In this document: positions 3,413-14,818 of the stretch, in pieces
Layout of the letters: each line of letters starts with the position of its first letter
Numbering within the stretch: the stretch's first letter is position 1
Source: a virus
Lineage: Duplodnaviria; Heunggongvirae; Uroviricota; Caudoviricetes
Direction: 5' to 3' (one strand)
IMG/VR virus record: IMGVR_UViG_3300047476_001238
Span: 1-15,711 of that record
Length of the DNA: 15,711 nt
Made by a program: the position numbers and the translations under genes
The notes under the pieces: model-generated
The model's database searches: none
Told to the model about the DNA's origin: nothing
What the model saw: only the letters and a program-made list of their open reading frames with translations

Positions 3413-3727
3413 TTATTCTTGTTCTAGCGCAAACCTTGAACAAACAATTTCATAAAACTCGTCTAGATCACCACCAAATTTACCTTTAAGGTGTTCTGCC
3501 AGATCAATACATAATTTTGCATTTTTATCTTTGTTTGCTTGCACAAACTCTCGATGAAGTTTTTTCCAATGATCAAGCATGGTAATCTCAGTCAAAGGAA
3601 TAAGTTCGGTTGGAACTACACAAAACGTTTCTAATATTTTGTTTTCTACCACATGTGGCTCTAGTTCTAATACTGTGTATCTTTCACTGAGCTCTTCAGC
3701 TATTTGTCTTGAAAAAATTATATCCAT
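3413..3727 (-). CDS. Hypothetical protein, 104 aa, resembling the C-terminal region of class III (CHASE2-type) adenylate/guanylate cyclases
   Basis: Coupled ORF (TAATG); pattern IIF...AEE...Y.VLEL...V..K ... H.EF..A ... LKGKFGGDLDEFYEIV..R recalled as similar to cyclase C-termini; no catalytic N-terminal half. Confidence 0.45.
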   Translation of the reverse strand: MDIIFSRQIAEELSERYTVLELEPHVVENKILETFCVVPTELIPLTEITMLDHWKKLHREFVQANKDKNAKLCIDLAEHLKGKFGGDLDEFYEIVCSRFALEQE

Positions 3728-4281
3728 TATTTGGTTGCGCTTTCGTATGTACGTTTTTTAATACCCACTTCACTATATATTTGTTGCACAGCCCTGGCTT
3801 GATAATAACAATCAATCAAGGCATTGTGAGCACCGTGCCTATCTTTCTTTCTAGGATCGCCGTGTACACTAAACAGTGTACGACTGTCCCTAATCTGCCA
3901 GAACTGCCATGGTGTAGGTCTATCCATTTGTCTATATAAATCTTCTAGGATAACAATATCAAATGCAGGCCCTTGGCACCAAATATTATCTGCGCCTACC
4001 AAGAAACGATTGAGTTCGTCTAGCATGGCATTGATGCCAATCCTGCCCTCGATACCCATGGCCTCTTCGCGCACTTCTTCGGTTTGTGTTCCCCACCATT
4101 CAACAGTTAGATCTTGAATGTGCCGATCTAAAGCAATTTGCTCATCAACATCGGGCTTTAGATACAAGCCTTTATTGGTATCAACATCGCTTTCCCATGG
4201 ACTGAATTTGACTGCACCCAGGGTAAGGATCACTGCCCACGGTCTGGTGCTTAGTGTTTCTAGATCTAACATTACATCCAC
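3727..4281 (-). CDS. DEDDh 3'-5' exonuclease, Rv2179c/RNase AS-like exoribonuclease family
   Basis: Motifs DVMLDLETL (ExoI), WCQGPAFD (ExoII), HNALIDCYYQA (ExoIII); GTG start. Confidence 0.85.
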   Translation of the reverse strand: MDVMLDLETLSTRPWAVILTLGAVKFSPWESDVDTNKGLYLKPDVDEQIALDRHIQDLTVEWWGTQTEEVREEAMGIEGRIGINAMLDELNRFLVGADNIWCQGPAFDIVILEDLYRQMDRPTPWQFWQIRDSRTLFSVHGDPRKKDRHGAHNALIDCYYQARAVQQIYSEVGIKKRTYESATK

Positions 4282-5848: not shown

Positions 5849-6301
5849 TTACTTAGCGAAGGTAATTGCAATCTTCTTGGGCTTTTGTTCCTCAGGAACA
5901 ATATGCTCTAAGCTGATTGCCAGGATACCGTTAATAACGGTGGCTCCTTTTACTTCTACGTTTTCGTTTAGTGTAAACGAACGAGTGAAAGAGCGAGCAC
6001 TGATACCGCGATGTACGTATTCCTGCTCGTCCTTTACTTTACGCTCGCCCTTGATATATAGTACATTGTCCTTGCGTTCAATGTCTAGTTCATCTTCCCC
6101 GAAGCCTGCAACAGCCACTTGAATGGCCCAGTTGTTTTCGTCAACTTTGATAATGTTGTAGGGTGGGTAATTATCTGCCTTGGCGCTGTTGGCCCATGTG
6201 CGGCCTAGCTCATCAAACAAGCGATCAAAACCAATCGCATGGCGATGAATTTGTGCAGATAGTTGTGGAAGGTCAAGGGTGTTGATTTGGAATTGTGTCA
6301 T
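5849..6301 (-). CDS. hsp20: Small heat shock protein, Hsp20/IbpA-like
   Basis: IGFDRLFD, YPPYNI, IQVAVAGF, YVHRGISARSFTRSFTL, NGILAISL motifs of alpha-crystallin-domain IbpA/B proteins; SD AAGGAG. Confidence 0.95.
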   Translation of the reverse strand: MTQFQINTLDLPQLSAQIHRHAIGFDRLFDELGRTWANSAKADNYPPYNIIKVDENNWAIQVAVAGFGEDELDIERKDNVLYIKGERKVKDEQEYVHRGISARSFTRSFTLNENVEVKGATVINGILAISLEHIVPEEQKPKKIAITFAK

Positions 6302-6634: not shown

Positions 6635-6871
6635 TCAGAATAGTTTTTTAGGTAGCTGCTCGTCAGATAGCTTTTTAAGCCAGCGACGACGTGCTGCACT
6701 TTTGGCTTTTTTTCGAGCAGTGGTGGGTTTTTCGTACGATTCGCGCTCGCGCAGTTCCTGTAATAGTCCGCTATCACTTACTTTTTTCTTAAACTTACGC
6801 AGGGCTTTTTCTACGTTATCGTTAACTACCAGTACTCGATTACCGGTCACTTTATTGAATTTATCAAACAT
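6635..6871 (-). CDS. rpsU: Ribosomal protein bS21
   Basis: V.V.NDNVEKALRKFKKKV...G.LQELRERESYEKPTTARKKAKSAARRR is the bS21 signature. Confidence 0.93.
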   Translation of the reverse strand: MFDKFNKVTGNRVLVVNDNVEKALRKFKKKVSDSGLLQELRERESYEKPTTARKKAKSAARRRWLKKLSDEQLPKKLF

Positions 6872-11184: not shown

Positions 11185-11207
11185 AAAAAGAAGCCCGCAT
11201 AGCGGGC
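11185..11207 (-). terminator. Rho-independent terminator closing the small-gene island
   Basis: Minus strand GCCCGC-TAT-GCGGGC followed by TTCTTTTT. Confidence 0.85.
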
Positions 11208-11739: not shown

Positions 11740-11946
11740 TTAGTCTGGGGTTATACCCGGATCAATATCGCGTCCTTCAAAATGAGCTTGACTGACGCAA
11801 ACACGATTTTTCTTAAATTGATTAATACCCGACAGCTTGACTGCCATGCAGGCCTGTTTGGTTGCAAACGGACCTAGCTCAATTTTGTCTACAAATTTTC
11901 CGCTGGTAGTGTGCAACATAATAATTAGAATCCAGCCACCGGTCAT
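11740..11946 (-). CDS. Hypothetical protein, 68 aa, hydrophobic N-terminus and two Cys
   Basis: SD AGGAGG; WILIIML N-terminus; FATKQAC motif. Confidence 0.75.
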   Translation of the reverse strand: MTGGWILIIMLHTTSGKFVDKIELGPFATKQACMAVKLSGINQFKKNRVCVSQAHFEGRDIDPGITPD

Positions 11947-12095
11947 ACAGCCTCCTGCTTTCGATGTTTGGGATTGCGCTTGAACTCGCGCTTTTTGTTT
12001 TCAACTGTACGGCTCCGAAACGGTGAGCCAGATTCAAACAGCACACGATGCGCTCGGGTCTTTTGTTGGTACGGTATTTTCACTATCTTTTTCAT
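11943..12095 (-). CDS. Small basic protein, 50 aa, ArfA (alternative ribosome-rescue factor A)-like
   Basis: Below the ORF-track cutoff. MKKIVKIPYQQKTRAHRVLFESGSPFRSRTVENKKREFKRNPKHRKQEAV; fills the gap exactly (2 nt after the upstream stop, ATGA overlap downstream). The ORF is well supported; the ArfA call is motif resemblance only. Confidence 0.55.
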   Translation of the reverse strand: MKKIVKIPYQQKTRAHRVLFESGSPFRSRTVENKKREFKRNPKHRKQEAV

Positions 12096-12097
12096 GA

Positions 12098-12484
12098 TTA
12101 CATATTTACTGCTTGTTTGTTAATTGCAAAGCGATAAAACACTTCGCACTCCCGGATGAATGCACCAGTCACATCCATGCTCACAAAGTTATCGCCCTGC
12201 ATGCCTTGTTCACTGTAATTGATATCTTTAACTGCCTCGTCGCTAAAGCCCAAGGTCTGCATACACTCCCTGAATCCTTGCATCCATGCCCGGTCTGTGT
12301 AGATCAGGCCGTCGTTGTCAACATCCCATTCCGCAGGATCGAAGTAGGCACGAAGCTCACCAAAGTCACTTTCGTCATCAAGATAGGCAATACAAACACG
12401 ATCGATGGTCACGAACTTGGCAGCGGAGCTCCAGTAGCCTCGGCCATTGGTCTGAGTACGAAAATTAACTGTTTGATCAAACAT
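12098..12484 (-). CDS. Hypothetical protein, 128 aa
   Basis: SD AAGGA; no family recognised. Confidence 0.8.
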   Translation of the reverse strand: MFDQTVNFRTQTNGRGYWSSAAKFVTIDRVCIAYLDDESDFGELRAYFDPAEWDVDNDGLIYTDRAWMQGFRECMQTLGFSDEAVKDINYSEQGMQGDNFVSMDVTGAFIRECEVFYRFAINKQAVNM

Positions 12485-14263: not shown

Positions 14264-14818
14264 TTAACTGCCATAAAAAATATGGCGTCCAATCTTGGTA
14301 ATAGGTTTTTTACCCCATCCTGGTTGAACATAGTCAGCATGATAATACATTGCATTTTTGAGACTTGGAAGTCTGAAACCTTCTAGTAGTACTTTTTTAG
14401 CAACTTCTGCACTTTCATTGTACAGGGGTTGATAAACAGGACGTACTCGATGAGTGCCATCGCAATACCAAGAAAACTGGCAGACCACTTTTGAGTAGAC
14501 GACATTTTTCTGATACACTACAGCACAGATATCATTGGGAAACTGCCCACTGGCTGCTCGATTGATTGTGACCTGGGCCACAGCGACCTTGCCTTCGAAT
14601 GGTTCGCTAGCAGCTTCCCAATAAATGTTCTGCGTTAGGCAACGCAACTGGCGAGACCGTTCCTCCCCGGTTATTGGTTTCATGACAGCCATTTGGGCCT
14701 GTTCGGCCTTGAGTGACTCAAATTTGTTTTTGGTGACCTCTACCAAGGTGTATGTGGCCAACCACATACCAAAAACGATTGATACAAATTTTGCTAAGTT
14801 CGGCAAATATTGTTTCAT
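14264..14818 (-). CDS. Cell wall hydrolase, SleB/Hydrolase_2 family, with N-terminal TM anchor
   Basis: CLTQNIYWEAASEPFEGKVAVAQVTINR, CQFSW, YYHADYVQPGW, KIGRHIFY; SD AAGGAGG. Confidence 0.93.
   Translation of the reverse strand: MKQYLPNLAKFVSIVFGMWLATYTLVEVTKNKFESLKAEQAQMAVMKPITGEERSRQLRCLTQNIYWEAASEPFEGKVAVAQVTINRAASGQFPNDICAVVYQKNVVYSKVVCQFSWYCDGTHRVRPVYQPLYNESAEVAKKVLLEGFRLPSLKNAMYYHADYVQPGWGKKPITKIGRHIFYGS

Follow-up and report, generated by a model that had tools for sequence, protein, structure and literature searches.

Does a 50-aa open reading frame (ORF) hidden in a phage genome encode a ribosome-rescue factor of the ArfA type? The initial annotation of this locus claimed an ArfA-like factor without the self-destruct tail of its bacterial counterpart, and we followed up that claim by computational analysis. 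The window, i.e. the whole stretch of 15,711 nucleotides that was analysed, is the first 15.7 kb of the 137-kb IMG/VR record IMGVR_UViG_3300047476_001238, which has a G+C content of 41% and a CheckV completeness of 37%. The ArfA-like ORF occupies positions 11943-12095 on the minus strand, running from an ATG at 12095-12093 to a TGA at 11945-11943, and it contains exactly the peptide that had been quoted from it. The ORF listing, the conserved family and the dN/dS values described below are the grounds for this assignment.

The ORF sits tightly between two genes of no assigned function on the same strand. The upstream gene (128 aa, 12098-12484, minus strand) stops 2 nt before the ATG, and the start of the downstream gene (68 aa, 11740-11946, minus strand) overlaps the stop of the ArfA-like ORF as ATGA; the tight coupling noted at the outset is thus borne out. 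Junctions of the ATGA or TAAATG type to the next gene are kept in most relatives, and the 128-aa gene is syntenic in close relatives only. The AGGAGG Shine-Dalgarno sequence of the 68-aa gene (11951-11956, minus strand) lies inside codons 47-49 of the ArfA-like ORF, which probably explains in part why the last residues of the peptide are conserved. Following the small-gene block, an intrinsic-terminator-like hairpin with six G-C pairs and a T run (11193-11207, minus strand) likely marks the 3' end of the ORF's transcription unit. Elsewhere, also on the minus strand, the window encodes an exonuclease (3727-4281, phrog_255), an Hsp20-type small heat-shock protein (5849-6301, phrog_432) and an endolysin-like protein (14264-14818, phrog_938).

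The ArfA-like ORF is a real gene. Performing a word-indexed search of 5.8 billion proteins, we find 62 close relatives of 46-52 aa. At the profile level, with a profile built from diverse members, the number of relatives is 385, and 8 clusters were matched when 1.84 billion cluster representatives were searched exhaustively. Among 32 members, 17 positions are invariant, including the R-x-H-R-V-L-F block, S-P-F, R-T-V, Lys34, Arg40 and Lys43-His44. Judged from its coding sequences, the family is under purifying selection, with pairwise dN/dS values against relatives of 0.03-0.37 (median 0.22 over 241 pairs).

The family is virus-only. We saw it in 54 viral contigs, the longest of 355 kb, and pattern and tblastn searches of 185,579 bacterial and archaeal species genomes returned no homologue. 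Gene callers at JGI label the relatives 'hypothetical protein'. The ORF found no family match in Pfam or PHROGs, its tblastn search of 50,697 cultured-phage records gave chance matches only (E 7-10), and the region around it had no megablast match. Unnamed viral proteins make up the nearest Atlas clusters, one of which has a 23% share of DUF7230. Gene order is kept among close relatives, and distant phages keep the ArfA-like gene alone, amid unrelated neighbours such as UvdE, AAA ATPases and Bax1-I; the gene thus behaves like an independent module. It is unlikely to have a fixed partner gene, as synteny is limited to close relatives and divergent phages have unrelated neighbourhoods. On a divergent 152-kb phage fragment, the ArfA-like gene is adjoined by a gene (L041:4832-5884, plus strand) for a 350-aa protein in which a P-loop/ABC-type ATPase segment is joined to a GNAT acetyltransferase domain.

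We checked the similarity to ArfA with profile statistics. The Pfam ArfA model PF03889 has a gathering threshold of 25.5 bits, which the window protein fails to reach; hmmscan at E up to 10 left it unmatched, and this was the outcome of the HMM check that the initial annotation had proposed. A search of the phage's own 137-kb record with PF03889 also found nothing. One of 23 family members, a distant one, reaches the Pfam ArfA model at a sub-threshold 13 bits (E 0.071). A narrow family profile (A1) did not recover ArfA from the PDB. With a broader profile (A2) searched against 177,635 PDB sequences at E up to 10, all six matches were ArfA chains (E 0.076-0.36).

For direct comparison, we used 30 diverse ArfA genes from 401 proteobacterial genomes. 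Aligning the family with these ArfAs over the whole length, hhalign gave a Prob of 82.7 and a P of 9.5e-6 over 27 columns. The real score was 32.5, against 9.3 ± 2.1 (maximum 17.4) for column shuffles of the ArfA alignment that preserve composition, and none of 300 shuffles was as good. The C-terminal halves (residues 24-50) gave a Prob of 93.9 and a P of 1.6e-7, with none of 200 shuffles as good. In comparison, the N-terminal halves scored 6.7 against 5.9 ± 1.4 for shuffles, of which 45 of 200 were as good, i.e. the score was at shuffle level. A six-frame search of the 401 genomes with the family profile recovered, amid noise, the arfA genes of four of them (G216, G368, G220 and G156), each time via query positions 25-47. 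The top matches outside arfA (in G249 and G207) scored better and are noise, lying inside other genes or in alternative frames.

At the level of sequence profiles, the ArfA similarity is real and is confined to the C-terminal half (residues 24-50). Profile similarity to ArfA among homologues, which the initial annotation had made a touchstone of its claim, is therefore present, both in the hhalign comparison (P 9.5e-6) and in the PDB matches, which are only ArfA. The claim of an ArfA-like factor itself is supported in part: it stands for the C-terminal half, but the Pfam model does not match, the KGKGS loop is absent, and the N-terminal half has no detectable similarity.

Residue by residue, the match centres on a core of codons 24-44 (11964-12026, minus strand), comprising S-P-F, the R-T-V strand segment, N-K-K, an aromatic residue, Arg40 and Lys43-His44. 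This core aligns to ArfA Pro23-His45 with a gap of 2-3 residues at the G-K-G-S loop. The initial annotation quoted the E. coli ArfA sequence correctly, and the common spacing that it described, F-R-x-R-x-x-x-N-K-K...(Y/F)-x-R-x-x-K-H, holds with a deletion where ArfA has G-K-G-S. The deletion takes 2 residues from the window protein and 3 from most relatives. The KGKGS loop is indeed replaced, as had been noticed: K-G-K-G-S-(Y/F) is present in 30 of the 30 sampled ArfAs, and the phage family has K-K-(R)-(E/Q)-(F/Y) instead, 2-3 residues shorter.

F26 and R29-T30-V31, which do not vary within the family, fall opposite ArfA F25-E30, that is, they correspond to the RF2-recruiting Phe25 and the strand Gln27-Glu30, which is a match at the sequence level only. 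Likewise, R40, K43 and H44, also invariant, pair with ArfA R41, K44 and H45. Phe25 and the strand Gln27-Glu30 of ArfA extend the beta-sheet of RF2 and in this way recruit it; residues 31-48 run along the mRNA tunnel, where their redundant basic residues bind 16S rRNA; and the Lys-His motif, common to ArfA and BrfA, occupies a pocket of the entry channel (PMC8012679, PMC5378476). The shortest ArfA reported to stay active is cut at Asn47, and ArfA cut at residue 40 is inactive (PMC5378476). The window peptide ends 6 residues after His44 (equivalent to ArfA His45), so it extends beyond the position matching Asn47. The observation that the ORF ends shortly after Lys-His applies to the whole family, since 53 of 53 orthologues have 3-9 residues beyond this motif. 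The best reading of these alignments is that the C-terminal half (S-P-F...K-H) would be homologous, or very closely analogous, to the docking and RF2-recruiting part of ArfA.

The N-terminal half carries a family-specific invariant block, R-A-H-R-V-L-F, at codons 14-20 (12036-12056, minus strand), which appears in both alignments A1 and A2 and includes the helix 15-19 of the AF2 model. This block shows no similarity to the ArfA N-terminus above shuffles in the hhalign comparison (45 of 200 as good). In ArfA, the N-terminal half becomes ordered on the switch loop of RF2 and activates this factor, and the hydrophobic N-terminal minidomain (Ala18, Leu19 and Leu24) is the RF2-activating part. A tentative extended alignment, of low confidence, pairs A15, V18 and L19 of the phage peptide with A15, A18 and L19 of ArfA, respectively. 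The A18T substitution in ArfA abolishes RF2 activation by steric hindrance (PMC8012679, PMC5378476). The invariant and bulkier Val18, opposite Ala18 in this low-confidence alignment, counts against RF2 activation.

In the AF2 model (mean pLDDT 75), the peptide is extended apart from a single short helix (residues 15-19), and the helix of ArfA comprises residues 15-24 (PMC8012679, PMC5378476). Such a model fits a peptide that would fold on its target, and it says nothing on function. A complex prediction with E. coli RF2 and the family alignment scored 0.12 against a mark of 0.32, which counts neither for nor against binding. We also considered the N-terminal H-R-V-L...S-P-F as a mimic of the codon-recognition strand and S-P-F loop of RF2, and regard this likeness as a coincidence. 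The family HMM did not match RF2 (a segment from E. coli prfB) with all filters off.

Bacterial arfA is translated from a stop-less mRNA, with an internal hairpin or terminator; its hydrophobic tail is dispensable, and tmRNA keeps ArfA off. The phage genes have none of this arrangement. All 53 orthologues from viral loci end in ordinary stops (TGA in 38, TAA in 14 and TAG in 1), and the hydrophobic tail is absent from the orthologues. RNA structure at the region of the ArfA-like ORF is not significant (fold z-score -0.58) and forms no hairpin, and the ORF holds no terminator within it. The ordinary stops, the lack of RNA structure and the lack of an internal terminator together exclude a non-stop mRNA design. 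The initial annotation was right that the ORF has no self-destruct tail, and this is true family-wide (53 of 53 ordinary stops, no hairpin). Given an ordinary stop and translational coupling in a multi-gene operon, the peptide would be made whenever the operon is expressed.

The window and its relatives carry other ribosome-directed genes. Ribosomal protein bS21 (78 aa; 6635-6871, minus strand) is encoded 5 kb downstream of the ArfA-like ORF, with a PF01165 score of 62.6 bits, above the cut-off. In each of five related records tested, a bS21 gene lies 5-10 kb from the ArfA-like gene. A permuted two-piece tmRNA occurs in 7 of 55 records carrying the ArfA-like gene, including the sole complete genome, G402 (L175); the others are L173 (G405:C1:14735-15032), L174/L055, L056, G417, G430 and G455. 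The remaining 48 of the 55 records are fragments, most of them short, so the absence of tmRNA there says little. Similarly, we found no tRNA or tmRNA in the 137-kb record, which carries little weight as this record is only about 37% complete. The tmRNA tag of the close relative G405 ends A-L-A-A and the tmRNA of L055 also matches the betaproteobacterial model, which suggests a betaproteobacterial host.

IF-1 (PF01176, 78-80 bits) is encoded in two related jumbo-phage records (G402:C1:75235-75429 and G430:C1:20233-20421). SmpB was not found in five related records. The close relative G405 encodes a 138-aa protein with a GGQ motif and an RF-1 domain (43.6 bits; L172:1300-1716, minus strand), whose C-terminus is acidic and without an ArfB-like basic tail. 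The GGQ gene is present in one of ten related records and absent from the complete genome G402, which argues against a two-piece ArfB formed with the phage GGQ protein.

What might the peptide do? Our leading proposal, to which we give somewhat less than even confidence, is that the gene encodes a divergent, virus-specific and constitutive ArfA-type factor with an RF2-dependent rescue mechanism. That the peptide docks in the mRNA channel of the ribosome is a narrower statement, which we consider probable from the sequence comparisons. Its basic residues would be threaded through the vacant mRNA entry channel, with the Lys-His motif anchored in the channel pocket, and the Phe25 equivalent and its strand would lie against RF2 in the A site. 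By docking in this manner, the peptide would recognise ribosomes that have reached the 3' end of a truncated mRNA and stalled there, and it would most likely recruit release factor 2 to free them. The phage would benefit during infection by keeping ribosomes free while mRNAs are cut. Ribosome binding, recruitment and activation of RF2, and the benefit during infection are the steps that we infer. Since relatives supply tmRNA, it appears unlikely that the peptide blocks the tmRNA-SmpB channel, and likelier that it promotes rescue.

The same features can be read in other ways. An ArfA-type tail could fill the vacant mRNA channel without activating a release factor, so that the peptide would act as a plug or modulator. 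Such a plug would block or retune host rescue (by ArfA, ArfB or tmRNA-SmpB) or would park ribosomes. In keeping with this, the docking half alone is ArfA-like and the activating N-terminal half is not, Val occupies the place where ArfA needs Ala18 (in the tentative alignment), and the KGKGS loop is absent. However, the invariant N-terminal block would be needless for a simple electrostatic plug, and the relatives, including the sole complete genome, encode tmRNA, which uses the same channel. Blocked rescue would presumably also trap ribosomes that the phage itself needs. We regard a plug, whether it blocks or retunes host rescue or parks ribosomes, as unlikely. An N-terminus that is invariant yet unlike that of ArfA could alternatively recruit a different partner, such as RF1, a host ArfB-like protein or the phage GGQ-domain protein, in which case the peptide would still be a rescue factor. 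Small RF-recruiting peptides, such as BrfA and ArfT, have evolved several times (PMC8012679), and the 138-aa GGQ-domain protein of the close relative G405 has no basic C-terminal tail of its own. Nevertheless, that protein is encoded in just one of ten related records and not in the complete genome, and the residues that give ArfA its RF2 specificity (Phe25 and the adjacent strand) are kept in the phage family, and a switch of partner appears quite improbable to us.

Could the resemblance to ArfA be misleading altogether? The resemblance covers about 24-27 columns of basic sequence with many Lys and Arg residues, and over so short a stretch it may be convergent. The gene might then encode an unrelated small basic DNA- or RNA-binding or regulatory micro-protein with no ribosome link, and in keeping with this it has no Pfam or PHROG assignment, its nearest Atlas clusters being the unnamed viral proteins, one of them 23% DUF7230. 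Against such convergence, the similarity depends on residue order and outlasts composition-preserving shuffles (0 of 300 and 0 of 200), ArfA is the sole PDB family recovered, arfA genes are recovered genome-wide, and the phage lineage has several ribosome-directed genes. We therefore hold an unrelated peptide to be doubtful. A functional chimera, with an ArfA-type docking tail joined to a new virus-only head and doing something that ArfA does not, would also be a low-probability outcome. The head of such a chimera might bring in another partner for release or hydrolysis, or might place host ribosome rescue or hibernation under a phage-controlled switch. If true, the peptide would belong to a new class of viral ribosome effector and would not be a plain ArfA.

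If the constitutive ArfA-type factor is the correct reading, large freshwater phages carry an always-on back-up ribosome-rescue factor beside tmRNA, bS21 and IF-1. Freeing ribosomes from broken mRNAs would then be limiting for phage replication, e.g. when host mRNA is degraded or when defence nucleases cut RNA. For ArfA itself, the family offers a natural experiment, in which the docking half was kept, KGKGS was dropped and the activating half was replaced. It could show which parts of ArfA sense an empty mRNA channel and which switch on RF2.

Among known systems, ArfA of beta- and gamma-proteobacteria (YhdL; PF03889; PDB 5U4I, 5MDV, 5H5U and 5MGP) is the nearest. Like ArfA, the phage peptide is small and basic, and it is about the length of active ArfA. 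The ordered motif F-R-x-R...N-K-K...aromatic-x-R-x-x-K-H is common to both, and a short helix is predicted near residue 15. Unlike ArfA, the phage family has no KGKGS loop, no detectably related N-terminal half, no stop-less mRNA, no hairpin and no hydrophobic tail. It is virus-only, and the window protein scores below the Pfam threshold; by its Pfam score, its loop and its ordinary stop, it falls outside ArfA proper. Several bacterial ArfA frames (L157, L162 and L164-L167) end in A-A, e.g. L-M-A-A or L-L-A-A. The C-terminus of the ssrA tag for degradation is similar, and the full-length ArfA product may carry a degron of its own in this ending.

BrfA of Bacillus subtilis and ArfT of Francisella are likewise small RF-dependent rescue peptides, and both are bacterial. 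BrfA adds a strand to RF2, places its KH motif in the mRNA channel and is regulated by trans-translation (PMC8012679). We detected no sequence similarity of the phage family to BrfA or ArfT; the PDB profile search returned ArfA only, though a BrfA entry, 6SZS, exists.

DUF7230 (PF23876), a family of no known function, gave sub-threshold matches in 3 of 23 family members (best E 1.3e-4) and no match to the window protein. It occurs in one of 301 proteobacterial genomes sampled, G176, as a 76-aa basic protein (L170:1480-1710, plus strand). In this protein, a hydrophobic tail comes after a K-H-K-G segment, a layout like that of ArfA, and G176 has no PF03889 match. DUF7230 may be another ArfA-type family.

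Phage-borne ArfA as a concept is not new. Gene product gp30 of the pelagiphage HTVC027P is already annotated as ArfA and has a Pfam ArfA domain, and its gene is expressed in both the early and the late phase of infection (PMC12753301). Searching with E. coli ArfA, we find two more in cultured phages. Gp99c of Salmonella phage Arash (L168:517-741, plus strand) is a near-canonical ArfA, 63% identical to E. coli ArfA and with K-G-K-G-S-Y; it is labelled 'ribosomal protein L2', and its start is probably placed too early. An unannotated ORF of Pseudomonas phage pf16 (L169:595-738, plus strand), partly overlapped by the annotated gene gp199 on the opposite strand, is an ArfA that is 49% identical to E. 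coli ArfA and also has K-G-K-G-S-Y. As in the present family, the Arash and pf16 ArfAs are about 47 aa long, phage-borne and closed by ordinary stops, and so they too appear uncoupled from tmRNA control. A literature search found no paper that treats the present family, nor any in which the function of a phage ArfA was tested. In comparison with the ArfAs of HTVC027P, Arash and pf16, which are near to bacterial ArfA, the present family forms a branch of its own that is virus-only and much more divergent. By its sequence relationships, it would be a new viral variant related to the ribosome-docking, RF2-recruiting half of ArfA.
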